From a virus, in UHGV virus genome UHGV-0076424: a stretch of 24,387 nt of DNA; one strand, given 5' to 3'. The translations under genes were made by a program, and so were the position numbers. Positions 5,616 through 24,387 of this stretch are shown here, piece after piece. The notes beneath the pieces were generated by a model. It was not told where the DNA came from and did no database searches. It was given only the letters and a program-made list of their open reading frames with translations. The stretch's first letter is position 1. The number at the start of each line of letters is the position of its first letter.

Positions 5616-5684
5616 ATTTCCATTTCACGCTCTTTAACAATAAGCAATCAACTTAACAGTCAATTCAAACTAAAGGAGTCAATT

Positions 5685-6224
5685 ATGCAACCACTTACAT
5701 ACCAACAGACTAGCGGATTTAGCCCGACTGCGGTGATAAATCGTTCTCAAACAAAACAGGTGCCAGGCCACGAAAAAATCCGTGATGCCGTCCGCGCCTG
5801 GTCGGCTGAAGATAATCAGGATGTCGTTGCCACACTCATTGTGAATGAGTATCGGGAGCAGGGCGGCGGCACTATCGATTTCCCTGATGATGTCAGCCGT
5901 GCACGCCAGAAGCTGTTCCGCTTCCTCGATAACAAATTCGATTCTGAAAAATACCGAAATAACGTGCGTGAACTGACCCCGGCAATTCTGGCGGTACTAC
6001 CGCTGGAATATCGCGGCCACCTGGTTGAGCAGGATAGCTTCATGGCTCGGCTGGCTGAAATGGAAAAGGAACTCTGTGAGGCAAAGCAGGCGGTCATTCT
6101 CAACGCACCACGCCACCAGAAACTGAAGGAGATGAGTGAAGGCATTGTGTCGATGTTTCGAGTGGACCCGGATCTGGCTGGTCCATTGATGGCGATGGTC
6201 ACCACCATGCTGGGGGCAATATGA
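5685..6224 (+). CDS. cII-position protein, possibly YdaT-family (CII-like) regulator
   Basis: 179-aa ORF with AGGAG RBS between cro-like and O; the EYREQGGG segment resembles my recollection of Rac YdaT. Its stop overlaps an in-frame upstream ATG of O (ATGA). Confidence 0.55.
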   Translation: MQPLTYQQTSGFSPTAVINRSQTKQVPGHEKIRDAVRAWSAEDNQDVVATLIVNEYREQGGGTIDFPDDVSRARQKLFRFLDNKFDSEKYRNNVRELTPAILAVLPLEYRGHLVEQDSFMARLAEMEKELCEAKQAVILNAPRHQKLKEMSEGIVSMFRVDPDLAGPLMAMVTTMLGAI

Positions 6225-6310
6225 CAGGTTCAAAAATGGCGAAAGTCGGTCTGCGGGAACAGAACCGACTTTCAGGTGCAAATCGTAACACACTCATTGC
6301 GGGAGGAATT

Positions 6311-7240
6311 ATGGCAAACACTGCTGAGATATTCAATTTTCCTGTGCCGGATGTGGCACAAAAGGAGCGGCGCGTGGCAGATCTCGATGATGGTTATACG
6401 CGCATTGCAAATGAGTTGCTGGAAGCTGTGATGCTGGCCGGATTAACACAGCACCAGCTTCTGGTCTTTCTGGCTGTCATGCGCAAAACATATGGCTTTA
6501 ATAAAAAACTGGATTGGGTTAGCAACGAGCAACTTTCCGAATTAACCGGGATATTGCCGCACAAGTGTTCTGCTGCAAAAAGTGTTCTGGTAAAGCGTGG
6601 GATTTTTATTCAGAGCGGGCGGAATATCGGCATCAATAATGTGGTCAGTGAATGGTCAACATTACCCGAATCGGGTAAGAAAAATAAAGTTTACCTGAAA
6701 GAGGTAAATTTACCTGAATCAGGTAAGAAAAGTTTACCTAAATCAGGTAAAGGCGTTTACCCGAATCAGGTAAACACAAAAGACAAACTAACAAAAGACA
6801 ATATAAAACCTTTTTCGTCCGAGAATTCTGGCGAATCCTCTGACCAACCAGAAAACGATCTTCCTGTGGAGAAACCAGATGCTGCAATTCAGAGCGGCAG
6901 CAGGTGGGGGACAGCAGAAGACCTGACCGCCGCAGAGTGGATGTTTGACATGGTGAAGACCATCGCGCCATCAGCCAGAAAACCGAATTTTGCAGGGTGG
7001 GCTAACGATATCCGCCTGATGCGTGAACGTGACGGACGTAACCACCGCGACATGTGCGTGCTGTTCCGCTGGGCATGCCAGGACAACTTCTGGTCCGGTA
7101 ACGTGCTAAGTCCGGCCAAACTCCGCGACAAGTGGACCCAACTCGAAATCAACCGTAACAAGCAACAGGCTGGTGTGACTGCCAGCAAACCAAAACTCGA
7201 CCTGACGAACACTGACTGGATTTACGGGGTGGAGCTATGA
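6311..7240 (+). CDS. O: Replication initiator O (non-lambda N-terminal domain, lambda-type C-terminal domain)
   Basis: Start chosen at the ATG preceded by GGGAGG (MANTAEIFNF...), aligning with lambda O MTNTAKILNF. C-terminal ~150 aa (SSENSGESSDQPENDL...WIYGVEL) is near-identical to lambda O. The track ORF starts at 6221. Confidence 0.9.
   Translation: MANTAEIFNFPVPDVAQKERRVADLDDGYTRIANELLEAVMLAGLTQHQLLVFLAVMRKTYGFNKKLDWVSNEQLSELTGILPHKCSAAKSVLVKRGIFIQSGRNIGINNVVSEWSTLPESGKKNKVYLKEVNLPESGKKSLPKSGKGVYPNQVNTKDKLTKDNIKPFSSENSGESSDQPENDLPVEKPDAAIQSGSRWGTAEDLTAAEWMFDMVKTIAPSARKPNFAGWANDIRLMRERDGRNHRDMCVLFRWACQDNFWSGNVLSPAKLRDKWTQLEINRNKQQAGVTASKPKLDLTNTDWIYGVEL
6660..6810. repeat. Origin of replication: five palindromic iterons plus AT-rich tract inside O
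   Basis: Five ~19-bp repeats close to TTTACCTGAATCAGGTAAA, followed by the A-rich tract ACAAAAGACAAACTAACAAAAGACAATATAAAACC; same position as ori-lambda within O. Confidence 0.7.
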
Positions 7241-7938
7241 AAAACATCGCCGCACAGATGGTTAACTTTGACTGTGAGCAGATGCGCCGGATCGCCAACA
7301 ACATGCCGGAACAGTACGACGAAAAGCCACAGGTACAGCAGGTAGCGCAGATCATCAACGGTGTGTTAAGCCAGTTACTGGCAACTTTCCCGGCGAGCCT
7401 GGCTAACCGTGACCAGAATGAACTGAACGAAATCCGCCGCCAGTGGGTTCTGGCTTTCCGGGAAAACGGGATCACCACAATGGAACAGGTTAACGCTGGA
7501 ATGCGCGTAGCCCGTCGGCAGAATCGACCATTCCTGCCATCACCCGGGCAGTTTGTCGCCTGGTGCCGGGAAGAAGCATCTGTTAACGCCGGGCTGCCAA
7601 ACGTCAGCGAGCTGGTTGATATGGTTTACGAGTATTGCCGGAAGCGTGGCCTGTATCCGGATGCAGAGTCTTATCCGTGGAAATCGAACGCGCATTACTG
7701 GTTGGTTACCAACTTGTACCAGAACATGCGGGCCAATGCGCTGACTGACGCGGAATTACGGCGCAAGGCTGCCGATGAACTGACCTGTATGACAGCGCGA
7801 ATTAACCGTGGTGAGACGATACCTGAACCAGTAAAACAACTTCCTGTTATGGGCGGTAGACCTCTAAATCGTGCACAGGCTCTGGCGAAGATCGCAGAAA
7901 TTAAAGCTAAGTTCGGACTGAAAGGAGCAAGTGTATGA
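7237..7938 (+). CDS. P: Replication protein P (helicase loader)
   Basis: 233-aa product MKNIAAQMVNFDCEQMRRIANNMPEQYDEKPQVQQ... is near-identical to lambda P; ATGA overlap with O. Confidence 0.95.
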   Translation: MKNIAAQMVNFDCEQMRRIANNMPEQYDEKPQVQQVAQIINGVLSQLLATFPASLANRDQNELNEIRRQWVLAFRENGITTMEQVNAGMRVARRQNRPFLPSPGQFVAWCREEASVNAGLPNVSELVDMVYEYCRKRGLYPDAESYPWKSNAHYWLVTNLYQNMRANALTDAELRRKAADELTCMTARINRGETIPEPVKQLPVMGGRPLNRAQALAKIAEIKAKFGLKGASV

Positions 7939-8237
7939 CGGGCAAAGAGGCAATTATTCATTACCTGGGGACGCATAAGAGCTTCTGTGCACAGGACGTT
8001 GCCGCGGTAACAGGCGCAACCGTAACCAGCATAAATCAGGCTGCGGCTAAAATGGCGCGGGCAGGAATCCTGGTCGTTGATGGTAAGGTCTGGCGAACGG
8101 TGTATTACCGGTTCGCTACCAGAGAAGAACGGGAAGGAAAGGTGAGCACGAATCTGATTTTTAAGGAGTGTCGCCAGAGTGCCGCGATGAAACGGGTATT
8201 GAGGGTATATAAAAGAACATCAATGGGAACACAATGA
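7935..8237 (+). CDS. ren: Ren (Rex exclusion relief protein)
   Basis: Product MTGKEAIIHYLGTH...AAKMARAG...VWRTVYYRFATREEREGK matches lambda Ren as recalled; intact here. Confidence 0.9.
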   Translation: MTGKEAIIHYLGTHKSFCAQDVAAVTGATVTSINQAAAKMARAGILVVDGKVWRTVYYRFATREEREGKVSTNLIFKECRQSAAMKRVLRVYKRTSMGTQ

Positions 8238-8304
8238 TGAAACAGGTGAGTTGAGTTCAAACTGTAGTACAATTCTCTCCAGTTTGAACAGGAAAGAATA
8301 TGCT

Positions 8305-8637
8305 ATGAACCCTTATATTTATCTTGGTGGTGCAATACTTGCAGAGGTCATTGGTACAACCTTAATGAAGTTTTCAGAAGGTTTTACACGGTTATGGCCA
8401 TCTGTTGGTACAATTATTTGTTATTGTGCATCATTCTGGTTATTAGCTCAGACGCTGGCTTATATTCCTACAGGGATTGCTTATGCTATCTGGTCAGGAG
8501 TCGGTATTGTCCTGATTAGTTTACTGTCATGGGGATTTTTCGGCCAACGGCTGGACCTGCCAGCCATTATAGGCATGATGTTGATTTGTGCCGGTGTGTT
8601 GGTTATTAATTTATTGTCACGAAGCACACCACATTAA
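8305..8637 (+). CDS. emrE: EmrE small multidrug resistance efflux transporter
   Basis: 110 aa from MNPYIYLGGAILAEVIGTTLMKFSEGFTRLWPSVG..., matching E. coli EmrE; four hydrophobic helices. Confidence 0.95.
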   Translation: MNPYIYLGGAILAEVIGTTLMKFSEGFTRLWPSVGTIICYCASFWLLAQTLAYIPTGIAYAIWSGVGIVLISLLSWGFFGQRLDLPAIIGMMLICAGVLVINLLSRSTPH

Positions 8638-8665
8638 AATAATTTGTTTCTAAACGACTAAAATA

Positions 8666-8700
8666 TGGAGGCTCTTATATTTATATGAGCCTCGTTTTAT
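8666..8700 (+). terminator. Intrinsic terminator after emrE
   Basis: Stem GGAGGCTC/GAGCCTC with a 12-nt AT loop, followed by GTTTTATGCTTTTTG. Confidence 0.55.
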
Positions 8701-8891
8701 GCTTTTTGTTAATGTCTTTATTTTTTATGTATTCTTTTGTGCTTTCAAGATTATGGCGTAAGAAAATTGCAATACGATTATTGTTGTATATTCAAGATAA
8801 TGTGACCTTAATTGTCTTTTTAAATAAAAATTAAACAAAAATTATATCCCACCACTAAGGTTTATAAAAGCATACGTTAGCAGGTGTCACC

Positions 8892-10418
8892 ATGAAAAAA
8901 GCCATAGCATATATGCGATTTTCATCACCAGGTCAGATGTCTGGTGACTCATTAAACCGACAGAGAAGACTTATTGCTGAATGGTTAAAGGTAAATAGTG
9001 ATTATTATCTTGATACCATAACATATGAAGATTTAGGATTAAGTGCATTCAAAGGAAAGCATGCACAATCAGGAGCTTTTTCGGAATTTTTAGATGCTAT
9101 AGAGCATGGTTATATATTGCCAGGAACTACATTGTTAGTTGAAAGTCTGGACAGACTTTCAAGAGAAAAAGTCGGTGAAGCGATTGAACGTCTGAAATTG
9201 ATTTTGAATCACGGTATTGATGTTATAACTCTTTGCGACAATACAGTCTATAATATTGACTCTTTGAATGAGCCATATTCATTAATAAAAGCCATACTTA
9301 TAGCACAAAGGGCAAATGAAGAAAGCGAGATAAAGTCAAGTCGGGTTAAATTATCATGGAAGAAAAAACGGCAGGATGCAATGGAATCAGGTACGATTAT
9401 GACGGCGTCTTGTCCGAGATGGCTCTCCTTAGATGACAAAAGAACGGCTTTTGTTCCAGACCCCGACAGGGTGAAAACTATTGAGCTAATTTTTAAACTC
9501 AGGATGGAAAGGCGCTCATTGAATGCAATAGCCAAGTATTTAAATGATCATGCTGTAAAGAATTTCTCAGGAAAAGAAAGTGCATGGGGACCTTCTGTAA
9601 TTGAAAAATTATTAGCGAATAAAGCTCTGATAGGTATATGCGTACCTTCATATCGTGCAAGAGGGAAAGGGATAAGTGAAATCGCTGGCTATTATCCCAG
9701 AGTTATATCAGATGATTTGTTTTACGCTGTACAGGAAATTCGGTTGGCACCTTTTGGTATTAGCAATAGTAGCAAGAATCCTATGCTAATAAATCTACTT
9801 CGAACAGTTATGAAGTGTGAGGCTTGTGGTAATACCATGATTGTTCATGCGGTATCTGGAAGTTTGCATGGCTATTATGTTTGTCCGATGAGAAGATTAC
9901 ATCGATGTGACAGGCCATCAATAAAAAGAGATTTGGTTGATTATAATATCATTAATGAATTGCTTTTTAATTGTAGCAAAATTCAACCAGTTGAAAACAA
10001 GAAAGATGCTAATGAAACTTTAGAGTTAAAAATTATTGAGCTTCAGATGAAAATTAATAATTTAATCGTTGCATTGTCTGTCGCGCCTGAAGTTACCGCT
10101 ATAGCAGAGAAAATAAGACTATTAGATAAGGAATTACGAAGGGCTTCGGTATCATTGAAAACTTTGAAGAGTAAAGGTGTAAATTCATTCAGTGATTTTT
10201 ATGCTATTGACTTAACCAGTAAAAATGGACGAGAGTTATGCCGTACACTTGCCTATAAAACATTCGAAAAAATCATAATTAATACGGATAATAAAACCTG
10301 TGATATCTATTTTATGAATGGCATTGTTTTTAAACACTATCCTTTAATGAAAGTAATATCCGCCCAGCAGGCGATAAGTGCTCTCAAATATATGGTTGAT
10401 GGTGAGATTTATTTCTAA
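8892..10418 (+). CDS. ybcK: Large serine recombinase (resolvase/invertase N-domain, recombinase domain, Cys-rich region)
   Basis: 508 aa; N-terminal YMRFSSPGQ matches the serine-recombinase catalytic motif (Y-x-R-x-S-x-x-x-Q). Cys cluster CEACGN...CPMRRLHRC suggests a zinc ribbon. Gene order matches the DLP12 emrE-ybcK-ybcL-ybcM block. Low GC. Confidence 0.85.
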   Translation: MKKAIAYMRFSSPGQMSGDSLNRQRRLIAEWLKVNSDYYLDTITYEDLGLSAFKGKHAQSGAFSEFLDAIEHGYILPGTTLLVESLDRLSREKVGEAIERLKLILNHGIDVITLCDNTVYNIDSLNEPYSLIKAILIAQRANEESEIKSSRVKLSWKKKRQDAMESGTIMTASCPRWLSLDDKRTAFVPDPDRVKTIELIFKLRMERRSLNAIAKYLNDHAVKNFSGKESAWGPSVIEKLLANKALIGICVPSYRARGKGISEIAGYYPRVISDDLFYAVQEIRLAPFGISNSSKNPMLINLLRTVMKCEACGNTMIVHAVSGSLHGYYVCPMRRLHRCDRPSIKRDLVDYNIINELLFNCSKIQPVENKKDANETLELKIIELQMKINNLIVALSVAPEVTAIAEKIRLLDKELRRASVSLKTLKSKGVNSFSDFYAIDLTSKNGRELCRTLAYKTFEKIIINTDNKTCDIYFMNGIVFKHYPLMKVISAQQAISALKYMVDGEIYF

Positions 10419-10882
10419 ATAATGATCTCGGATTTTAAGTTATGCTATGGTGATAAAGTGCAAGACAGAATTAATTATCTTTGACGAAACTTAATGGGTA
10501 ATTACTTTGTTTGCTCCCACAAGCGAGTTTTGTACGGCTGTATTGGGGTAGTAAATGAGCTATACAATCTTAATCATTTGTTAGGTGAGAACTCTTGGTC
10601 GCAGATTCAAATACTGAAAATACGTGACAAATTATTATGAGCAAAATGGTGTATGTCACGTATTTTGAATGGTAGGTTAAAAAATAACACCGACTTTCGT
10701 AGGTATTACTAATAATAAAGCAGAGTTTTTAGATAGTATCAATGTGCTTTGTGTATATTGTGGCAAATAATTGGGTTGGGGGTACAATTGTGATTGCTTT
10801 TGCATAAACATTGCGCCTTTATGCATAATGAGATAAAGGAATATCAAATAAAATAACGATAGGTCATAACAAAGAGGTTTTT

Positions 10883-11434
10883 ATGAAAACACTTATCGTT
10901 TCAACTGTATTGGCATTCATAACATTTTCTGCGCAGGCTGCAGCATTTCAGGTCACTAGTAATGAAATAAAAACAGGAGAGCAACTTACAACGTCTCATG
11001 TCTTTTCTGGATTTGGGTGTGAAGGTGGTAATACATCGCCCTCATTAACCTGGTCTGGTGTTCCTGAAGGTACCAAAAGCTTTGCCGTAACTGTATATGA
11101 TCCAGATGCACCTACAGGCAGTGGTTGGTGGCATTGGACTGTTGTTAATATTCCAGCAACAATAACATATTTGCCCGTTGATGCAGGGAGACGTGATGGA
11201 ACAAAACTGCCGACTGGTGCTGTTCAAGGCCGAAATGATTTTGGCTATGCTGGGTTTGGTGGCGCATGTCCTCCTAAAGGAGATAAACCACATCATTACC
11301 AGTTTAAAGTATGGGCTCTAAAAACTGAAAAGATTCCTGTAGATTCTAACTCCAGCGGAGCGTTAGTTGGTTATATGCTTAATGCTAATAAAATCGCAAC
11401 CGCTGAGATAACACCAGTTTATGAGATAAAGTAG
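10883..11434 (+). CDS. ybcL: Periplasmic PEBP/RKIP-family protein YbcL
   Basis: 183 aa with a signal peptide (MKTLIVSTVLAFITFSAQAAA) and the PEBP motifs DPDAPTGSGWWHW and HHY; paralogous to YbhB at the window end. Confidence 0.9.
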   Translation: MKTLIVSTVLAFITFSAQAAAFQVTSNEIKTGEQLTTSHVFSGFGCEGGNTSPSLTWSGVPEGTKSFAVTVYDPDAPTGSGWWHWTVVNIPATITYLPVDAGRRDGTKLPTGAVQGRNDFGYAGFGGACPPKGDKPHHYQFKVWALKTEKIPVDSNSSGALVGYMLNANKIATAEITPVYEIK

Positions 11435-11443
11435 GGTGAGAGT

Positions 11444-12241
11444 ATGCTGGCAAGAGGTAAGACTAACTTAAAGATCGAAGAAATACGGATGCATAAACAT
11501 CATGAGATTCATAGGGTTAAGCCTCTTATGCCAGCTTTGTGTCGTATCCGTCAGGGAAAGAAAGTTATCAATTGGGAGACGCATACTTTAACTGTTGATA
11601 ATAATCAAATAATATTATTTCCTTGTGGTTATGAATTTTATATTGAGAATTATCCTGAAGCAGGGCTTTATCTTGCAGAAATGCTTTACTTACCCATTGA
11701 TTTAATTGAGAGTTTCCAAAAACTTTATACGGTAACTGATCAAATACGTAACAAAACAAGTTTCTTTTTACCTCAGAATCCTGAGTTAATATATTGTTGG
11801 GAGCAACTAAAAACATCTGTTTCCCGAGGCTTCTCAACTAAAATTCAGGAGCACTTAGCAATGGGCGTTCTACTTTCGTTAGGAGTGAATCATGTTAATC
11901 ATTTACTTTTATCATATAGTAAACAATCATTGATAAGTCGTTGTTATAACCTGCTGCTATCCGAACCCGGCACAAAATGGACAGCAAACAAGGTTGCTCG
12001 ATATCTCTACATTTCTGTTTCTACATTACATCGCCGTCTAGCAAGCGAGGGGGTAAGTTTCCAAAGTATACTGGACGATGTGAGGTTAAATAATGCGTTG
12101 TCTGCTATACAAACGACGGTAAAACCTATAAGCGAGATTGCCAGAGAAAATGGTTATAAGTGTCCTTCTCGTTTTACTGAAAGATTTCATAATCGTTTTA
12201 ATATAACACCAAGAGAGATAAGAAAAGCTTCCAGAGAGTAA
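11444..12241 (+). CDS. ybcM: AraC/XylS-family transcriptional regulator YbcM
   Basis: 265 aa; C-terminal HTH region typical of AraC family ([26 protein letters not shown]...[14 protein letters not shown]). The true start may be the internal Met at 11489. Confidence 0.85.
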
Positions 12242-12455
12242 AAGTGTTTTAAGAAGGAGCAATTCTATCGATTTTGATTTTGGGAAATCAACACGGCATA
12301 ATTATGTCACCGGAGCCTGAACAACTCCGGTGACTTCTGCGCTAAACGGGGACGTTTATGCGCACATACAATCCAAACTCTCTTCTCCCTTCACAGATGC
12401 AGAAATGCACCTGCAATTCTTTGCATCTAGCGTTTGACCTCTGCGGAGGTGAAGC

Positions 12456-12911
12456 GTGAACCTCTCACAAGACGGCATCAAATTACATCGCGGCAACTTC
12501 ACCGCTATCGGTCGGCAGATCCAGCCTTATCTGGAGGAGGGCAAATGCTTTCGCATGGTGCTTAAACCGTGGCGTGAGAAACGCAGTCTTTCCCAGAATG
12601 CACTCAGCCACATGTGGTACAGCGAAATCAGTGAATACCTCATCAGCAGGGGTAAAACGTTCGCCACTCCAGCTTGGGTAAAAGATGCTCTCAAACACAC
12701 ATATCTCGGTTATGAAACCAAAGACCTGGTTGATGTCGTAACCGGTGATATCACCACTATCCAGTCGTTACGCCATACCTCCGATCTTGATACCGGAGAG
12801 ATGTATGTCTTCCTGTGTAAGGTTGAAGCCTGGGCGGTGAATATTGGCTGCCACCTGACTATTCCGCAGAGCTGCGAGTTCCAGCTGCTCCGCGACAAGC
12901 AGGAGGCGTAA
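12456..12911 (+). CDS. ybcN: YbcN, DLP12-type nin-region protein (reported DNA base-flipping protein)
   Basis: GTG start preceded by GGAGGT; 151-aa product [27 protein letters not shown]... matches K-12 YbcN as recalled. Confidence 0.85.
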
Positions 12912-13081
12912 TGGCTACACCGCTTATTCGTGTCATGAACGGACACATCTACAGAGTATCAAATCGTCGTAAGCGTAAGCCTGAGCTGAAGCCATCCGAA
13001 ATACCAACACTGCTCGGATATACCGCTAGCCTGGTTGATAAAAAATGGTTGCGACTGGCAGCAAGGAGGAATCATGGCTGA
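12911..13081 (+). CDS. ninE: NinE
   Basis: Hand-translated 56-aa [59 protein letters not shown]; its start overlaps the ybcN stop (TAATG). Below the ORF-track length cutoff. Confidence 0.8.
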   Translation: MATPLIRVMNGHIYRVSNRRKRKPELKPSEIPTLLGYTASLVDKKWLRLAARRNHG

Positions 13082-13364
13082 TTTGAGAAAAGCAGCGCGT
13101 GGTCGGGAATGCCAGGTAAGAATCCCTGGCGTATGTAATGGCAATTCTGAAACGTCTGTACTGGCACATATCCGGCTGGCTGGATTGTGCGGTACCGGTA
13201 TCAAACCGCCAGACCTGATTGCCACCATTGCATGTTCTGCCTGCCACGACGAAATCGACCGCCGCACACATTTTGTCGATGCTGCATATGCAAAAGAATG
13301 CGCGCTGGAAGGTATGGCGAGAACACAGGTTATCTGGCTGAAAGAGGGGGTTATTAAGGCGTGA
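13074..13364 (+). CDS. ybcO: YbcO, nin-region putative nuclease
   Basis: 96 aa from [24 protein letters not shown]... preceded by AGGAGG; Cys-rich. Overlaps the ninE 3' end and the rusA start. Confidence 0.8.
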
Positions 13365-13723
13365 ATACCTACAGTATCACATTACCCTGGCCTCCGAGCA
13401 ATAATCGCTATTACCGCCATAATCGCGGGCGCACGCACGTCAGTGCAGAGGGGCAGGCATACCGCGATAACGTCGCCCGAATCATTAAAAGCGCAATGCT
13501 GGATATCGGCCTGGCTATGCCTGTGAAAATCCGCATTGAGTGCCACATGCCGGATCGCCGTCGCCGTGACCTGGATAATCTGCAAAAAGCCGCTTTTGAC
13601 GCACTCACTAAAGCAGGTTTCTGGCTGGATGATGCTCAGGTCGTTGATTACCGCGTTGTGAAGATGCCTGTTACCAAAGGTGGGAGGCTGGAACTGACCA
13701 TCACCGAAATGGGGAATGAATGA
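13361..13723 (+). CDS. rusA: RusA Holliday-junction resolvase
   Basis: 120-aa product [37 protein letters not shown]... is near-identical to E. coli RusA. Confidence 0.95.
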
Positions 13724-13860
13724 TGTTTGAGTTTAATATAGCAGAACTTCTTCGCCACCGCTGGGGGCGTCTGCGCTTATATCGTTTCCCCGGTTCTGTT
13801 TTGACCGATTACCGAATACTGAAGAATTACGCCAAAACCCTGACAGGAGCAGGAGTATGA
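13720..13860 (+). CDS. ylcG: YlcG small protein
   Basis: Hand-translated 46-aa [49 protein letters not shown] overlapping the rusA stop; matches K-12 YlcG as recalled. Confidence 0.7.
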
Positions 13861-13945
13861 AGTCAGAGATAACAATCAACTAATACTGTTTTATTGATTT
13901 TTGCTTGTAATTGGCGTTCTGGTCTGATTTTTGTGGAGTAAGTTG

Positions 13946-14329
13946 ATGCGTGATATTCAGATGGTTCTTGAGCGTTGGGGAGCGTGGGCGGCTAATAATC
14001 ATGAAGATGTGACCTGGTCGTCCATTGCCGCCGGTTTTAAGGGATTAATTCCTTCAAAAGTAAAATCTCGCCCGCAATGTTGTGACGATGACGCGATGAT
14101 CATTTGCGGGTGCATGGCCCGTCTGAAAAAGAACAACAGCGATTTGCACGATTTATTAGTAGATTATTATGTAGTCGGTATGACATTCATGTCACTGGCA
14201 GGTAAGCATTGCTGCTCTGATGGTTATATCGGGAAAAGGTTACAGAAGGCTGAGGGCATAATTGAAGGGATGTTAATGGCATTAGATATCCGGTTAGAGA
14301 TGGATATCGTTGTTAATAACTCTAATTAA
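13946..14329 (+). CDS. quuD: Late-gene antiterminator Q (QuuD, phage 82-type)
   Basis: 127 aa from the ATG at 13946 ([26 protein letters not shown]...), preceded by GGAG; matches K-12 QuuD as recalled. Cys-rich zinc-binding region present. Confidence 0.85.
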
Positions 14330-14362
14330 TACGCCAATTATTTACTAAAAGTTATTAAAAAT

Positions 14363-14502
14363 GGGGCGTTGAAACGCCCCCAAAAATAAAGGGTAATATA
14401 TAACAGAAGGTTTGTATAGTTAGAAGCAAGGTTGTGCTTCTAAAGGAAGTGGCTTGAGGGAGCCACTTATATGTTGGGGAGGCAAAGCCTCCCACAACAT
14501 AT
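14363..14502. terminator. Cluster of four stem-loops between convergent Q and nmpC (candidate tR' and nmpC terminators)
   Basis: Hairpins at 14363-14380 (GGGGCGT/ACGCCCC, T-tract on the minus strand), 14421-14442, 14450-14467 and 14470-14502 (long GC stem followed by CTTTT on the plus strand). Confidence 0.4.
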
Positions 14503-14517
14503 CTTTTAGTAATCAAA

Positions 14518-15600
14518 TTAGAACTGGTAAACCATACCTACAGCAACGATATCATCGGTAGCAACGCCAGATGCTTTCGTGAAATCGCTCTTATCAATCA
14601 GGTTGATTTTGTAGTCAACAAAAGTGGACATATTTTTGTTGAAGTAATAGGTTGCACCTACATCAACATATTCAACCAGGTCCTGATCACCCCAAACACC
14701 CAAGTCTTTTCCTTTAGAATGCAGGTAAGCAACGGATGGACGCAGGCCGAAGTCGAACTGATATTGTGCAACAGCTTCGAAGTTTTGTGCTTTGTTGGCA
14801 ATATGGTTATTACCAAAAACAGTCATGTTCTGGGTTTCAGAATAGGTGGTGGCCAGATAGATGTTGTTCGCATCATATTTCAGACCAGCTGCCCATACTT
14901 CAGCATTTTGACCAGAAGCATTCAGACCGTTGTTACCGTAGATAACCTGATTATTAGTGCGATCAGATTTAGCATAGGTTGCACCTACACCGAATCCTTC
15001 ATACTCATAAGTAGTGGAGAAACCGAAACCATCACCATTAGCTTCAGTTACGTCAGTGCGGTCATTTTTACCCTGATACTGAGCAGCAAAGTTCAGACCA
15101 TCAACCAGACCAAAGAAGTCGTTGTTACGATAAGTTGCAACACCAGTGGTGCGACCAGTCATGAACACATCTGTTTGAGTCCAAGTGTCACCACCGAATT
15201 CTGGCAGGACGTCAGTCCACGCACCGATGTCGTATGCTACACCGTAGTTACGGCCGTAATCGATGGAGCCGTAGTCACCGAATTTCAGGCCAGCGAAGGC
15301 AAGACGGGTTTTATCTTTGGAGGAACCTTGAGATTCAGCGCGGTTGCCTTTGAATTCATATTCCCACTGACCGAAACCAGTCAGTTGATCGTTGATTTGG
15401 GTTTCACCTTTGAAGCCAAGACGGGCATAAGTAGTATCACCATCATCTGCATCATTAGAGGAGAAGTAGTGCTTAGCATTAACTTTCCCGTACAGATCCA
15501 GCTTGTTACTGTCTTTATTATAAATTTCAGCTGCCTGAGCAGACATCGCCATCAGTACTGATGCAGCTACAGCAGAAATTGCCACTGTTAATTTTTTCAT
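14518..15600 (-). CDS. nmpC: Outer-membrane general porin NmpC (OmpC/OmpF/PhoE family), intact
   Basis: 360 aa with signal peptide ([23 protein letters not shown]), porin-like beta-strand pattern and C-terminal Phe (GMVYQF); uninterrupted, unlike the K-12 copy. Confidence 0.9.
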
Positions 15601-16189
15601 CGTGAGCCCTTTTTTTTGAACTATTATTAAAAAATGATGTCACTGCGCGATAAATATTCATCTAATCAATGTGATTATTTCAAGATGTAAGTTTTAGTTT
15701 CTCATTTAATTTGTGAAGTAGATCTCTATTTTTATCTGAACTTTTTCTATCGAAACCTATTTATGGCTCTTATTTGAACAAAAATAAACCTATTAGCTAA
15801 TTTATATTAATGGCTGTTATTTATGGGGGGGTCTATAATTCGATGGTTTAATTTAAATTAACTAAAAATAACGCCGGAAATTATTTATTGGTTATTTGTT
15901 GAGGTTTTCTTATGTATTTGTGGTGGTGTTTTGAACACTCGGTAGCATTCTCATAAATATCATTCAGTGGTTTACGTACGTAAAAAATTGGTTATGCTGT
16001 TAAGAGTGGTTACTTCGTCACACAGCTTAAACCCGCCGTCGAGCTGGTTTTTCCATTTTTTGAGTCTCGATATTAGCTGATAACTCAATACCTGAGTTAT
16101 TCACTGACTCCGAGTCTGTTACGTTTCTGCTTTTTTGCGATACGTTGTATTCCCTCAATTTACACCCGCTTTGTCTGCGAGGTGGGGTT

Positions 16190-19626: not shown

Positions 19627-20172
19627 ATGGAAGTCAACAAAAAGCAGCTGGCTGACATTTTCGGTGCGAGTATCCGTACCATTCAGAACTGGCAGGAACA
19701 GGGAATGCCCGTTCTGCGAGGCGGTGGCAAGGGTAATGAGGTGCTTTATGACTCTGCCGCCGTTATAAAATGGTATGCCGAAAGGGATGCTGAAATTGAG
19801 AACGAAAAGCTGCGCCGGGAGGTTGAAGAACTGCGGCAGGCCAGCGAGGCAGATCTCCAGCCAGGGACTATTGAGTACGAACGCCATCGACTTACGCGTG
19901 CACAGGCCGACGCACAGGAGCTGAAAAATGCCAGAGACTCCGCTGAAGTGGTGGAAACCGCATTCTGTACTTTCGTGCTGTCGCGGATCGCAGGTGAAAT
20001 TGCCAGTATTCTCGACGGGATCCCCCTGTCGGTGCAGCGGCGTTTTCCGGAACTGGAAAACCGACATGTTGATTTCCTGAAACGGGATATCATCAAAGCC
20101 ATGAACAAAGCAGCCGCGCTGGATGAACTGATACCGGGGTTGCTGAGTGAATATATCGAACAGTCAGGTTAA
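19627..20172 (+). CDS. nohD: Terminase small subunit Nu1
   Basis: 181-aa product [54 protein letters not shown]... is essentially identical to lambda Nu1. Confidence 0.95.
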
Positions 20173-22372
20173 CAGGCTGCGGCATTTTGTCCGCGCCGGG
20201 CTTCGCTCACTGTTCAGGCCGGAGCCACAGACCGCCGTTGAATGGGCGGATGCCAATTATTATCTCCCGAAAGAATCCGCATACCAGGAAGGGCGCTGGG
20301 AAACACTGCCCTTTCAGCGGGCCATCATGAATGCGATGGGCAGTGACTACGTCCGCGAGGTGAATGTGGTGAAGTCTGCCCGTGTTGGTTATTCCAAAAT
20401 GCTGCTGGGTGTTTATGCCTACTTCATAGAGCATAAGCAGCGCAACACCCTTATCTGGTTGCCGACGGATGGTGATGCCGAGAACTTTATGAAAACCCAC
20501 GTTGAGCCGACCATCCGCGATATTCCTTCGCTGCTTGCGCTGGCCCCGTGGTATGGCAAAAAGCACCGGGATAACACGCTCACCATGAAGCGTTTCACCA
20601 ATGGGCGTGGCTTCTGGTGCCTGGGCGGTAAAGCGGCAAAAAACTACCGTGAAAAGTCGGTGGATGTGGCGGGTTATGATGAACTTGCTGCCTTTGATGA
20701 GGATATTGAACAGGAAGGCTCTCCGACGTTCCTTGGCGACAAACGTATTGAAGGCTCGGTCTGGCCAAAGTCCATCCGTGGCTCCACGCCCAAAGTGAGA
20801 GGCACCTGCCAGATTGAGCGTGCAGCCAGTGAATCCCCGCATTTTATGCGTTTTCATGTTGCCTGCCCGCACTGCGGGGAGGAGCAGTACCTTAAATTTG
20901 GCGATAAAGAGACGCCGTTTGGCCTCAAATGGACGCCGGATGATCCCTCCAGCGTGTTTTATCTCTGCGAACATAATGCCTGCGTCATCCGCCAGCAGGA
21001 GCTGGACTTCACTGATGCCCGTTATATCTGCGAAAAGACCGGGATCTGGACCCGTGATGGCATTCTCTGGTTTTCGTCATCCGGTGAAGAGATTGAGCCG
21101 CCGGACAGCGTGACCTTTCACATCTGGACGGCGTACAGCCCGTTCACCACCTGGGTGCAGATTGTCAAAGACTGGATGAAAACGAAAGGGGATACGGGAA
21201 AACGTAAAACCTTCGTAAACACCACGCTCGGTGAGACGTGGGAGGCGAAAATTGGCGAACGTCCGGATGCTGAAGTGATGGCAGAGCGGAAAGAGCATTA
21301 TTCAGCGCCCGTTGCCGCACCGGCAGCGCCGTCGCGGATTGAGCTGACGCCGGGCTATTTTCAGATAACCGCCACGCCGCATCTTGCGGTTTATGATCCG
21401 ACGGTACAGTTTGAGTTCTGGTTCTCGGAAAAGCGGATTGCGGATATCAGGCAGGTTGAAACCACAGCACGCTATCTTGGCACGGCGCTGTACTGGATAG
21501 CCGCCAGTATCAATATCAAACCGGGCCATGATTATTACTTTTATATCCGCAGTGTGAACACCGTTGGCAAATCGGCATTCGTGGAGGCTGTTGGTCAGCC
21601 GAGTGATGATGCATCCGGTTATCTGGATTTTTTCAAAGGCGAGATAGGGAAAACCCATCTGGCTCAGGAGCTGTGGACGCAGATTGATAACGGTCAGCTT
21701 GCGCCTGACCTGGCTGAAATCAGGACGTCCATTACGGATGTCAGCAATGAAATCACGCAGACCGTCAATAAGAAACTGGAAAACCAGAGTGCGGCAATTC
21801 AGCAGATACAGAAGGTTCAGGTTGATACAAATAATAACCTGAACAGCATGTGGGCTGTGAAGCTGCAGCAGATGCAGGACGGACGCCTTTATATCGCGGG
21901 TATTGGTGCCGGTATTGAGAACACCCCTGACGGCATGCAGAGTCAGGTGCTGCTGGCGGCGGACAGGATTGCGATGGTTAATCCTGCGAATGGCAACACA
22001 AAACCGATGTTTGTTGGTCAGGGCGATCAGATATTCATGAACGACGTGTTCCTGAAACGCCTGACGGCCCCCACCATTACCAGCGGTGGCAGTCCTCCGG
22101 TATCGCCGGAAGGGGAGTTTCAGAAGTGGAACGGCACAGCCTGGGTGAAAGATGCAGAAGCAGAAAAACTGTTCCGGATCCGGGAGGCGGAAGAAACAAA
22201 AAACAGCCTGATGCAGGTAGCCAGTGAGCATATTTCGCCACTTCAGGATGCGGTAGATCTGGAGATTGCAACGGAGGAAGAAATATCGTTGCTGACAGCC
22301 TGGAAGAAGTATCGGGTATTGCTGAACCGTGTTGATATTCTTGAGCCAGTTTGGCCTGTGCAACCACAATAA
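20147..22372 (+). pseudogene. Chimeric deletion-scar ORF: terminase large subunit A N-terminus fused in frame to tail-tip J and tail-fibre-assembly (Tfa) C-terminal fragments
   Basis: Residues 1 to ~390 (to KEHYSAPV) match lambda gpA. The product then continues as [34 protein letters not shown]...[20 protein letters not shown] (lambda J C-terminal region) and ends [17 protein letters not shown]...LLNRVD (Tfa C-terminus). Confidence 0.8.
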
Positions 22373-22478
22373 CGGAAGGATTTACTCCTTTTATTATTGC
22401 TGACTTAAAGCCAGTTTCAGGCGTATCGTGGCTGAGACAGATAACCACCCGCTATGCGAGTGGTTATGATTTTAACCT

Positions 22479-23198
22479 TTAACCTTTAACCTTTAATTTG
22501 AGATTTTTTACTTTGCCATAAAGCGTATCTTTTAAAGAAAAAGATGGAACCCAGTTAAAACCAGTGCGCCAGGGGCGTGGACTACCGTGAAAACACACAA
22601 CTGAAACACTGTCAGGTACTTTCCCAGTTGCTGATTTTGATGCCAGGTCTGGATTGTATCCAATCATTGATTTTGTTGCTATATCGCATTTATAACTTTT
22701 AATTGCATCTGGAATAATGTCCTGCCATAAGTCTGGCTTAGTAACACTACCGATAAAACCTTGATCACCCCATTTATCTTCAGTTTTGCATTCTTGCATT
22801 ATTTGTTCAGGATTGGCAGTAAATTCCTCCCATATTTTTGTCTTTGCAGAAACGGGAATCATCATAATTGAGGAGTTAACACGGTCATGATGATTAAACT
22901 CCCTGAGCATGGTAAAATTTTTAGCTTTTGTAAAAATATCCAATTTTCCAGTAATGACAACATCTATGTCAAAATATAAAATGTCATGATTCCCGATTAC
23001 TGGATGGTTTGGGTTAAATAACTCCATTTTTGACCACCAACCAGGCCAATCAAATAACAAAGGTGCAGTATTCACACCATCAATACTTCCAGCATCAGTC
23101 AAGCAGATTGAGGGCATTGAACCAAATTGTTTATGAAGCCATTGTGCATGTTTCGGCGTAAAATCCTTGCCGCAGCGTAGTACAGAAACGATCAACAT
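22479..23198 (-). CDS. Hypothetical 239-aa b-region protein (possible DxD-motif nucleotide-sugar transferase or phosphoesterase-like)
   Basis: Intact low-GC ORF between the tail-gene scar and attR; contains GNHD and YFDIDVV (DxD-like) motifs. No family confidently recognised. Confidence 0.5.
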   Translation of the reverse strand: MLIVSVLRCGKDFTPKHAQWLHKQFGSMPSICLTDAGSIDGVNTAPLLFDWPGWWSKMELFNPNHPVIGNHDILYFDIDVVITGKLDIFTKAKNFTMLREFNHHDRVNSSIMMIPVSAKTKIWEEFTANPEQIMQECKTEDKWGDQGFIGSVTKPDLWQDIIPDAIKSYKCDIATKSMIGYNPDLASKSATGKVPDSVSVVCFHGSPRPWRTGFNWVPSFSLKDTLYGKVKNLKLKVKG

Positions 23199-23471
23199 AG
23201 AAAATCTTTCCTAAACTTTCAGATCTAATTTATACATTAAATAGTTTGAGGTTATGAATACTATCTGAAGTATACAAGTTATTATGTGAAACAACCAGAA
23301 GAGTGACTACAATCCTAAGAAAACAAATTGTGGTAGATGTTGGCGCGAGAATACACAGGCGGAACGATTACCTGTGATGTTGGTGGGTCGAAGTTGTATG
23401 AAAAATTTCCTGCTGGGGATAAATAAAGTCGCGGTATGTCATGTGCGGGAAGGAATAATCATTGGTTTTAT

Positions 23472-23506
23472 GCCGCAGCACGTTGTATGCAATAACGTGC
23501 TGCGGC
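23472..23506. promoter_or_regulatory. Perfect 13-bp inverted repeat, candidate sib-like retroregulator
   Basis: GCCGCAGCACGTT, 9-nt loop, AACGTGCTGCGGC; about 250 bp on the b-region side of the att core, where lambda carries sib. No U-tract follows on either strand. Confidence 0.4.
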
Positions 23507-23612
23507 TGGCTGGTGAACTTCCGATAGTGCGAGTATTGAATGATTTCCAGACGTTACCGATTTTACGACAAAAAATTAGCGCAAGAAGACAAAAATCACC
23601 TTGCGCTAATGC

Positions 23613-23775
23613 TCTGTTACAGGTCACTAATACCATCTAAGTAGTTGATTCATAGTGACTGGATATGTTGTGTTTTGTCGCGTTTTGCAGTCTATTTTTT
23701 AGACTGAATCAATTATAAGTCGTTGATATTAATTGTTTTTACCGTTTCACATTCAACTTTTTTATACTAACTTGA
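23613..23775 (+). other. attR (phage P arm, core, bacterial B' arm)
   Basis: TCTGTTACAGGTCACTAATACCATCTAAGTAGTTGATTCATAGTGACTG matches the start of the lambda attP P arm with arm-type Int sites. Core CTTTTTTATACTAA (23757-23770) is 14/15 to lambda, followed by CTTGAGCGAAACG, the lambda attB B' arm. Confidence 0.8.
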
Positions 23776-23860
23776 GCGAAACGGGAAGGTAAAAAGACAA
23801 AAAGTTGTTTTTAATACCTTTAAGTGATACCAGATGGCATTGCGCCATCTGGCAGAGTGA

Positions 23861-24337
23861 TTAACTAAACATCGCAGTAATCGAGGCGCTTGCCAGAGAG
23901 TGGAAATGAACGTTAAACCCGACCATCGCGCCGCTGGCACCTTCATCGACATCAATACGTTCTATATCCAGCGCGTGAACGGTAAAAATGTAGCGATGAG
24001 TTTCGCCTTTCGGCGGTGCTGCGCCATCGTACCCGGTTTTACCAAAGTCGGTACGCGTCTGCAAAACGCCGTCTGGCATTGCTACCAGACCAGAGCCAAA
24101 CCCTTGCGGTAATACGCGGGTATCAGCGGGTAAGTTAACAACTACCCAGTGCCACCAGCCGGAGCCGGTTGGCGCATCCGGGTCGTAGCAGGTGACAACA
24201 AAACTTTTCGTTCCCGCAGGAACATCATCCCACGCCAGATGCGGTGAAATATTATCGCCATCGTAACCCATGCCGTTAAAGACATGACGATGCGGCAATT
24301 TATCGCCATCGCGCAGATCGTTACTGATGAGTTTCAT
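23861..24337 (-). CDS. ybhB: Host PEBP-family protein YbhB
   Basis: 158-aa product MKLISNDLRDGDKLPHRHVFNGMGYDGDNISPHLAWDDVPAGTKSF... matches E. coli YbhB, the gene flanking att-lambda on the bio side. Confidence 0.9.
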   Translation of the reverse strand: MKLISNDLRDGDKLPHRHVFNGMGYDGDNISPHLAWDDVPAGTKSFVVTCYDPDAPTGSGWWHWVVVNLPADTRVLPQGFGSGLVAMPDGVLQTRTDFGKTGYDGAAPPKGETHRYIFTVHALDIERIDVDEGASGAMVGFNVHFHSLASASITAMFS

Positions 24338-24387
24338 GAACCCTCCTTTCTTGTTTGCAGAAAGTGTAGCCAGAAACCCTCACGCGG

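Follow-up and report, generated by a model that had tools for sequence, protein, structure and literature searches.

An apparently mosaic cargo block carrying an orphan large serine recombinase, YbcK, between ren and the nin genes of a lambdoid prophage

The slot between ren and the nin genes in the pR operon is filled differently in different lambdoid phages. Lambda has no cargo there; ren and ninB are 73 bp apart in its ren-tR2-ninB order. The cryptic prophage DLP12 of Escherichia coli K-12 has the order emrE-ylcJ-ybcK-ybcL-ybcM-ybcN-ninE-ybcO-rusA-ylcG-quuD-nmpC, and four of its cargo genes already carry K-12 names. The nin region of phage 82 (X92588: orf33, orf151, orf56, orf96, rus, orf45, Q) is also on record, but the deposited fragment begins just upstream of a 29-bp repeat, leaving leftward cargo outside it. 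Here we describe this slot in a 24,387-nucleotide stretch of the virus genome UHGV-0076424 (the window, meaning the whole stretch, read 5′ to 3′ on one strand), where an AT-rich block of about 4.2 kb carries the DLP12 genes in the DLP12 order, including ybcK, which encodes a large serine recombinase (LSR). The block is probably mosaic cargo of the ren–nin slot with an orphan, functional-looking recombinase; its inverted repeats are best read as regulatory, and there is no sign that YbcK moves or flips anything.

The segment from 7900 to 12900 matches an E. coli chromosome annotated ren-emrE-ylcJ-ybcK-ybcL-ybcM-ybcN-ninE-ybcO-rusA-ylcG-quuD-porin at 100% identity and K-12, where the region is DLP12, at 99.7%. 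Judged by these matches, the block corresponds to the already catalogued, and thus already known, emrE-ylcJ-ybcK-ybcL-ybcM cargo region of DLP12-type lambda-like prophages. The window prophage differs from DLP12 in retaining exo-bet-gam, the repressor, cro, O and P, in adjoining ybhB where DLP12 adjoins argU, and in lacking the IS3 insertion that K-12 strains carry in the region. Our genome survey covered complete E. coli genomes only (5,426); for each search, up to 40 matching places sampled through the whole ranking were listed. The full block is found in 668 of these genomes. It is also carried by PhiR70_1 and PhiR34_1, two complete phage genomes whose records give E. coli C and K-12 MG1655 as hosts.

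The preliminary description of the locus, made from the sequence alone, had placed an AT-rich block with emrE, ybcK, ybcL and ybcM between ren and nin-type genes, and this holds. GC (guanine plus cytosine) content is 0.367 across 8238–12455, against 0.511 in the O-P-ren segment (5684–8201) and 0.488 among the nin genes (12272–14300). The four genes, with ylcJ as a fifth, lie in one orientation on the plus strand, and the four encode the expected Pfam domains. The block also has the marks of a ‘moron’: it sits between conserved backbone genes, its GC content deviates (0.36 versus 0.49–0.51), and relatives hold alternative cargo or none. Unrelated cargo occupies the same slot in the EH41 prophage, in PhiR30_1 (an acyltransferase and a lipoprotein) and in phi80, and nothing occupies it in lambda. 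PhiR70_1 and PhiR34_1, which carry the block, and PhiR30_1, which does not, are all deposited as complete phages with a named host, as expected of dispensable cargo. The proposal that the block is horizontally acquired cargo of the lambdoid early-right region is therefore supported.

We located the block's boundaries by aligning six related loci to the window. Homology with the EH41 prophage, whose slot holds two hypothetical genes, is lost at 8201 and regained at 12272. Three prophages that retain emrE-ybcK, with other or no downstream cargo (L004–L006), follow the window as far as 10459 and again from 12272. In EcN, a prophage-free chromosomal locus that lies between fliE and yedK matches 8229–8644, 10728–12458 and 14231–15930; it carries emrE-ybcL-ybcM and the porin, and lacks ybcK and the nin genes. 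The resulting breakpoints lie at 8201/8229, 8644/8645, 10459, 10727/10728 and 12271/12272, and the block extends from about 8202/8229 to 12271. Its edges had been drawn at 8238 and 12455, the right one about 184 bp too far to the right, since homology resumes at 12272. On the left, ren (7935–8237, plus strand; the E. coli record with 100% identity calls it ‘protein ren’) is the final backbone gene before the cargo, and its last ∼10 codons, from about 8202, fall in the variable block, with matches to island-less prophages stopping at 8201–8210. The left junction zone thus spans 8202–8228, from the point where homology with locus L002 stops to the start of the EcN emrE module at 8229.

Within these limits the block divides into three plus-strand modules and a linker. 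Module 1 (8229–8644) comprises emrE and is delimited by the EcN breakpoints. Module 2 (8645–10459) comprises ylcJ-ybcK, bounded by 8644/8645 against EcN and by 10459 against L004–L006; it consists of ybcK with about 190–250 bp upstream and about 40 bp downstream, and is common to all ybcK-bearing E. coli prophages. The left limit at 8704 in O157-type matches reflects local divergence only, as L005 aligns through it unbroken. Then follows a 268-bp non-coding linker (10460–10727) confined to the DLP12-type arrangement. Module 3 (10728–12271) comprises ybcL-ybcM and occurs without ybcK beside emrE at the fliE locus. Across the compared loci emrE, ybcK and ybcL-ybcM are present in differing combinations. 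We also considered a cassette-type insertion hotspot at 10459 and rejected it: L004, L005 and L006 share sequence past the junction, which makes it a single junction and not a site of recurrent insertion.

Of the 4,527 genomes in which anything matches, most belong to the fliE-yedK type, at ∼90–95% identity. This remnant of emrE-ybcL-ybcM and an nmpC-like porin is thus present, free of a prophage, in most E. coli (∼91–95% identity; e.g. the Nissle-type locus L001, 6001–9848), and L001 lacks exactly the ybcK module (8645–10727) and the nin genes (12459–14230). Since the remnant has no prophage, the cargo genes outlive their phage.

The modular make-up bears directly on the idea that YbcK integrated the block, all 4.2 kb of it, as a single nested element, the flanking repeats being attL and attR. 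An intact LSR inside a compositionally distinct block, with real hairpin repeats near both ends, is what such an element might look like. The boundary data already contradict it. The block splits into modules that assort independently, and the slot holds other cargo in relatives. The recombinase gene sits in mid-block, starting about 660 bp from the left edge and ending about 1,850 bp from the right; it is thus more than 600 bp from either edge, where curated LSR elements were required to have the gene within 500 nt of an attachment (att) site (PMC10083194). No empty site or target duplication was found among the compared prophages, because the related phages hold other cargo in the slot.

The repeats themselves do not bound the block. 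Both 10-bp perfect inverted repeats reported earlier are present, at 8255–8264 with 8280–8289 and at 12306–12315 with 12325–12334, but neither coincides with a homology boundary, an outcome that the preliminary description had itself named as telling against its proposal. The left one (8255–8289, plus strand) has 13-nt arms, 12 of 13 positions being complementary, and forms a hairpin or operator-like element in the emrE leader, 26–53 bp inside the block and 16 nt before the emrE ATG. Its predicted RNA fold has −13.4 kcal/mol (z = −1.0). The repeat is 100% conserved in the fliE-yedK copy of emrE, although the flanks differ by about 5%; as it is conserved with emrE outside the prophage, it belongs to emrE and not to an island edge.

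The right repeat (12306–12334) lies 34 bp within conserved backbone, where all comparison prophages have regained homology. It is part of the nin-operon leader (12272–12459, plus strand), which has a promoter-like −35 at 12274–12279, a −10 at 12297–12302, and orf33 at 12358–12459, ahead of ybcN (orf151 of phage 82; 12456–12911, plus strand), the first nin-type backbone gene. Window positions 12262–12470 are 96.7% identical to phage 82, which shares the −35, the −10, the 29-bp repeat and orf33. The 1996 entry X92588 gives the same layout, with putative −35 and −10 followed by the repeat and then by orf33 and orf151 (ybcN), and annotates the 29-bp element as a “possible regulator-binding site”. 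Similarly, phi80 annotates an inverted repeat, IR4, at the equal place, and the tR2 terminator hairpin of lambda, in the same pR operon position, stands between ren and ninB where the window has this repeat. The right hairpin is strong (−19.3 kcal/mol, z = −4.2). Having no clear U-tract, it may act as an operator and not as an intrinsic terminator. In sequence, the left and right repeats are unrelated (GTTCAAACTG versus GTCACCGGAG). Both are cis-regulatory hairpins, the left in the emrE leader and the right in a promoter/operator- or terminator-like nin leader. A left repeat that travels with emrE alone, and a right repeat that is backbone in phages with other cargo, leave the single nested element highly improbable.

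Such hairpins are also not confined to the edges. The window contains eight perfect hairpin repeats of at least 10 bp, against 0.58 expected in Markov-simulated sequence (an about 14-fold excess). The edge repeats are two of the eight, and others lie inside ybcK (9139–9162) and at 10617–10666; the hairpins are real elements, not markers peculiar to the block. The one at 10617–10666 lies in the linker and has perfect 13-bp arms (10617–10629, AAAATACGTGACA; 10654–10666, TGTCACGTATTTT) separated by a 24-nt spacer (z = −3.3). This highly non-random palindrome is confined to the DLP12-type arrangement, and the linker with it occurs in 675 genomes, in single copy and never split. It is a candidate operator, terminator or recombinase site.

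YbcK (ybcK, 8892–10418, plus strand) was first described as a 508-aa large serine recombinase with an intact catalytic motif, and domains, invariant residues and fold agree with this. The protein contains the catalytic Resolvase domain (PF00239, E = 5e-19), the Recombinase domain (PF07508) and a zinc ribbon (PF13408, Zn_ribbon_recom). In an alignment of YbcK with 17 homologues at 32–61% identity, R9, S11, D87, R88 and R91 are invariant, as are the zinc-ribbon cysteines C309, C312, C331 and C339. A sequence search of the PDB returned no matches for YbcK. Its AlphaFold2 (AF2) model (pLDDT 79.7), with long helices at 367–397 and 402–430, aligns full-length in Foldseek to the serine integrase–att complexes, PhiC31, Bxb1 and the Listeria integrase (4KIS), with E-values of 4e-19 to 1e-10. 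Global TM-scores are low (∼0.44), which we attribute to a flexible domain arrangement. By its residues and predicted fold, YbcK is a complete, intact LSR of the integrase type and appears catalytically competent.

Selection has kept it so. Pairwise ratios of nonsynonymous to synonymous substitution rates (dN/dS) among four E. coli ybcK alleles are 0.06–0.18, a cluster at 90% identity, represented by a 508-aa protein, has 6,144 members, and full-length orthologues at 40–60% identity retain every catalytic residue and zinc ligand. These observations make it very improbable that ybcK is no more than the inactive remains of an old element, kept by hitch-hiking, even though we found no target for it and it is silenced in K-12, where the Rho/NusG-dependent terminator tybcK in the ybcK leader keeps the gene off (PMC4150792). 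Reports on ybcK in the literature concern expression, silencing and tolerance, and none concerns recombination. The preliminary description called the role of such an enzyme unexplained in a prophage of the lambda-type integrase kind, and we concur.

We searched the window for sites on which YbcK might act. Long-range scans for direct and inverted repeats, and a mismatch search with a palindrome arm, returned only chance-level pairs as att-like repeats, and no long inverted crossover sites flank any segment of the window. When the stretch upstream of ybcK, and likewise of 20 orthologues, was scanned from −130 to 0, the strongest 11-nt inverted repeat never beat shuffled sequence (p of 0.15 or more). 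A weak attP-like repeat at 8805–8861, upstream of ybcK, was likewise not significant (p about 0.4) and was dropped.

Complete genomes gave no sign of rearrangement either. The 5′ part of ybcK was found in 1,406 genomes at 1,503 places, and the 122 bp upstream of it in 1,405 genomes at 1,494 places. Except for insertion sequence (IS) insertions or deletions, all listed E. coli places run co-linear with the window, and the departures that we inspected are IS-associated or truncated copies. In every E. coli copy inspected or listed, ybcK follows ylcJ and emrE, with at most two to three copies per genome. A possible split junction near 8833 was rejected on the one case inspected, an IS1-mediated deletion; a further match ends at 8830. 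Inversion or excision across 8238–12455, suggested earlier, was thus not seen among the listed places in complete E. coli genomes (∼1,400 genomes).

These results also address the suggestion that YbcK is a DNA invertase flipping a local promoter- or gene-containing segment as a phase-variation switch. YbcK falls within the superfamily of serine recombinases and has a weaker PHROGs match to a ‘DNA invertase’ family. However, its architecture is that of an LSR and not of the ∼190-aa invertase type, there are no inverted crossover sites around any segment, and the block has a single, co-linear orientation in all complete-genome places listed, bar IS events. Gin-like invertible segments near orthologues that come after tail-fibre genes were considered as well and rejected, since four scanned loci (L009, L011, L013 and L016) lack inverted repeats. 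A local switch therefore has a very small probability.

Relatives of YbcK occur in many settings. Full-length relatives (about 505–522 aa, 40–60% identity) are found in Atlantibacter, Yersinia, Citrobacter, Kluyvera, Ewingella, Erwinia and Pantoea. Some follow the replication genes of lambdoid prophages, as ybcK does: in Pantoea dispersa, whose prophage also has a tyrosine integrase; in Atlantibacter RC6, between a methylase gene and DUF1367; and in Candidatus Pantoea alvi, adjoining P. Others lie at the tail-fibre or lom end of a prophage, where it meets the host (Yersinia, Atlantibacter, Citrobacter and Candidatus Pantoea symbiotica), next to umuDC or SRAP genes, next to a tyrosine integrase, or between metabolic genes on large Pantoea and Duffyella plasmids. 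In Ewingella, Citrobacter pasteurii and another member of the Enterobacteriaceae (L017 8992–13303; L018/L019 8148–11530; L020 9107–11527), for example, the orthologue adjoins umuDC and/or a SRAP (YedK-like) gene, and its orientation relative to umuDC varies between genera. The DNA common to different contexts is the gene with at most ∼250 bp upstream and at most ∼80 bp downstream, and no conserved ends or flanking motifs were found among the orthologue loci.

This pattern raises the question of whether the ylcJ-ybcK module (about 1.8–2.1 kb) is itself a minimal self-mobile single-gene element that inserted between emrE and ybcL, with relatives that have jumped between prophages and plasmids. 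Against the EcN emrE-ybcL junction the module is a 2,083-bp indel with only ∼4 unaligned bases, and orthologues stand as discrete single-gene blocks of low GC, in either orientation, at many places with unrelated surroundings. Moreover, two Pantoea genomes share a 94%-identical orthologue module of ∼1.8 kb (−223 to about +60/80) in unrelated surroundings (L021 9779–11600 versus L031 9780–11600), which indicates recent transfer of a single-gene unit. The module nevertheless lacks terminal inverted or direct repeats and conserved end sequences, and its limits vary by pair, from −18 to −247 upstream and from 0 to +309 downstream. In ∼1,400 E. coli genomes, every copy inspected or listed is in the emrE-ylcJ-ybcK arrangement, and classical morons moving by illegitimate or homologous recombination explain the same pattern. 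From gene context, the orthologues look like promoter-gene-terminator morons, with a self-moving module as a minority possibility that we consider unlikely.

A further alternative is that YbcK, with a nearby attP-like site at 10617–10666 or 8805–8861, provides a second, integrase-independent route into the chromosome. The palindrome at 10617–10666 is suggestive for its non-randomness, and Ec07, an E. coli LSR to which YbcK is 40% identical, has a predicted attP directly upstream of its start codon. The supplement of Durrant et al. 2022 (PMC10083194) lists Ec07, with attP and attB, among LSRs characterised by experiment. An orthologue in Atlantibacter adjoins an RNA gene: it is the last gene of a myovirus-type prophage (L011 10001–12432), 540 bp from the 3′ end of an intact tmRNA gene. 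Yet neither candidate site was found split in complete genomes, the palindrome is missing from roughly half of the ybcK-bearing prophages, and the upstream repeat did not reach significance. Shared cores as long as 26 bp are more typical of tyrosine integrases. Computational attB and attP have been assigned to a 61%-identity family member (cluster10915, 103 proteins); they share a 26-bp core located at a terminator-like 3′ end, whereas the cores of the other LSRs that we read in the same tables are shorter, at 11–17 bp (PMC10083194). Because of this long core, we doubt that the pair are LSR sites; the core, placed at an RNA-gene-like terminator, has more the look of a tyrosine-integrase site, and the LSR of cluster10915 is probably a passenger there as well. 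A YbcK family member appears to be a passenger wherever its context could be read. We regard a second route as quite unlikely.

We therefore return to mosaic cargo with an orphan recombinase. In this model, which we consider probable, the block fills the ren-to-nin cargo slot of a DLP12/phage-82-type lambdoid early-right operon. It is built of the 268-bp linker and no fewer than three low-GC modules: emrE together with the hairpin of its leader, ylcJ-ybcK, and ybcL-ybcM. The modules would have been gained and exchanged independently, by ordinary mosaic recombination at gene boundaries and not by one site-specific insertion. The ybcK gene would be carried as a stand-alone cargo gene and, to judge from the K-12 data, would be silent in the lysogen through its Rho/NusG-dependent leader terminator. 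From its place in the pR operon, we infer that most YbcK would be produced once antitermination lets pR transcription run through the gene, following infection or induction. The enzyme may still recombine DNA somewhere; its sites would not be the flanking repeats and would most likely lie outside the block, with action in trans or at sites that have escaped recognition.

Several observations weigh against this model. A strongly conserved enzyme with no detectable substrate is an unsatisfying conclusion. Both the fairly clean 2,083-bp indel that separates the EcN copy from the ybcK module and the 94%-identical 1.8-kb Pantoea module in two contexts fit gene-level mobility. In Atlantibacter, no gene is nearer to the intact tmRNA gene than the orthologue, and an integrase usually takes that position. 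The palindrome at 10617–10666, about 200 bp 3′ of ybcK, lacks an explanation; at ∼50 bp it is as long as an attP. Finally, LSR att sites can have weak symmetry, so that repeat-based scans could miss them, and low-frequency rearrangements within a population would escape a survey of complete genomes.

A related reading, which we hold only tentatively and consider rather unlikely, would assign YbcK to a widespread Enterobacterales clade of solitary LSRs, kept by selection as prophage and plasmid cargo for a function other than integrating their carrier. At least some carrier elements have their own tyrosine integrase, and the palindrome at 10617–10666 may then be a candidate site. Such enzymes may provide an antitermination-switched second route of integration or excision, act in trans on other elements or the host, or move their own ∼2-kb module.

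Of the remaining cargo genes, emrE (8305–8637, plus strand; named in RefSeq) encodes an SMR multidrug efflux transporter (PF00893, E = 2e-35) in the PHROG category ‘moron’. A terminator-like hairpin (8668–8693, plus strand; z = −3.1), followed by a T-rich run, lies 3′ of it. The hairpin is overlapped by ylcJ (8685–8834, plus strand), a small open reading frame (ORF) identified from the RefSeq annotation and its translation. Its 49-aa product is strongly hydrophobic (MSLVLCFLLMSLFFMYSFVLSRLWRKK...) and resembles small membrane toxins in size and composition, and ylcJ is co-inherited with ybcK in every E. coli case. The ybcM gene (11444–12241, plus strand) encodes an AraC-family regulator (HTH_18/HTH_AraC). 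For ybcL (10883–11434, plus strand), previously called a secreted PEBP protein, membership of the PEBP/RKIP family is confirmed (PF01161, E = 7e-42); its N-terminus, MKTLIVSTVLAFITFSAQAAA, looks like a signal peptide when the translation is read by eye. The host YbhB (23861–24337, minus strand) is a PEBP protein 50% identical to YbcL and has no signal-peptide-like N-terminus; the window therefore holds two PEBP paralogues. PADLOC returned no match for EmrE, YbcK, YbcL, YbcM or YbcN, and an Rfam search of the whole window returned none inside the block.

Elsewhere in the window, four iterons of ∼17–23 bp (TTACCYGAATCRGGTAA) lie at 6662–6774 inside the O-like replication gene and look like a lambdoid replication origin. 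The prophage is defective: in other genomes, the match to the terminase gpA ORF stops at about 22101 (window 20147–24387). Beyond gpA are a tail-fibre-assembly remnant, a 239-aa ORF with no Pfam match (22479–23198, minus strand) and the host ybhB. The terminase-to-ybhB junction was found in one of the 5,426 genomes. The sole Rfam match in the window, IS009 RNA (RF02111; 22146–22344, plus strand; 205 bits), lies at the junction of terminase and tail-fibre remnant.

In large part these findings go over ground already annotated, in a bacterial genome that is among the best studied. What they bring into focus is a ‘y-gene’ puzzle, in that purifying selection conserves an enzyme of the integrase type in about one in four complete E. 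coli genomes and across the Enterobacterales. Should YbcK turn out to be active at defined sites, the genome-engineering toolbox would gain a native E. coli LSR, and it would become clear what use a second recombinase has to a lambdoid phage.

Among known recombinases, YbcK can be compared with two groups. Like YbcK, the small invertases Pin of e14, Gin of Mu and Cin of P1 are prophage-encoded and have the serine recombinase catalytic domain; they are, however, ∼190 aa long and adjoin an invertible tail-fibre segment with inverted crossover sites, none of which is seen at YbcK. The LSR integrases adjoin their own attP at the edge of an element, whereas YbcK is internal to a prophage of the type that bears a tyrosine integrase (intD is annotated in the DLP12-type record, and the integrase of the window prophage itself lies outside the window). 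In contrast to those enzymes, YbcK has neither an att site nor a directionality factor identified for it, and no integration polymorphism was seen. In its build it is nonetheless closest to this second group, sharing with Bxb1, PhiC31, the Listeria A118/LI integrase and Ec07 the three-domain architecture, the coiled coil and the catalytic Ser/Arg/Asp set.

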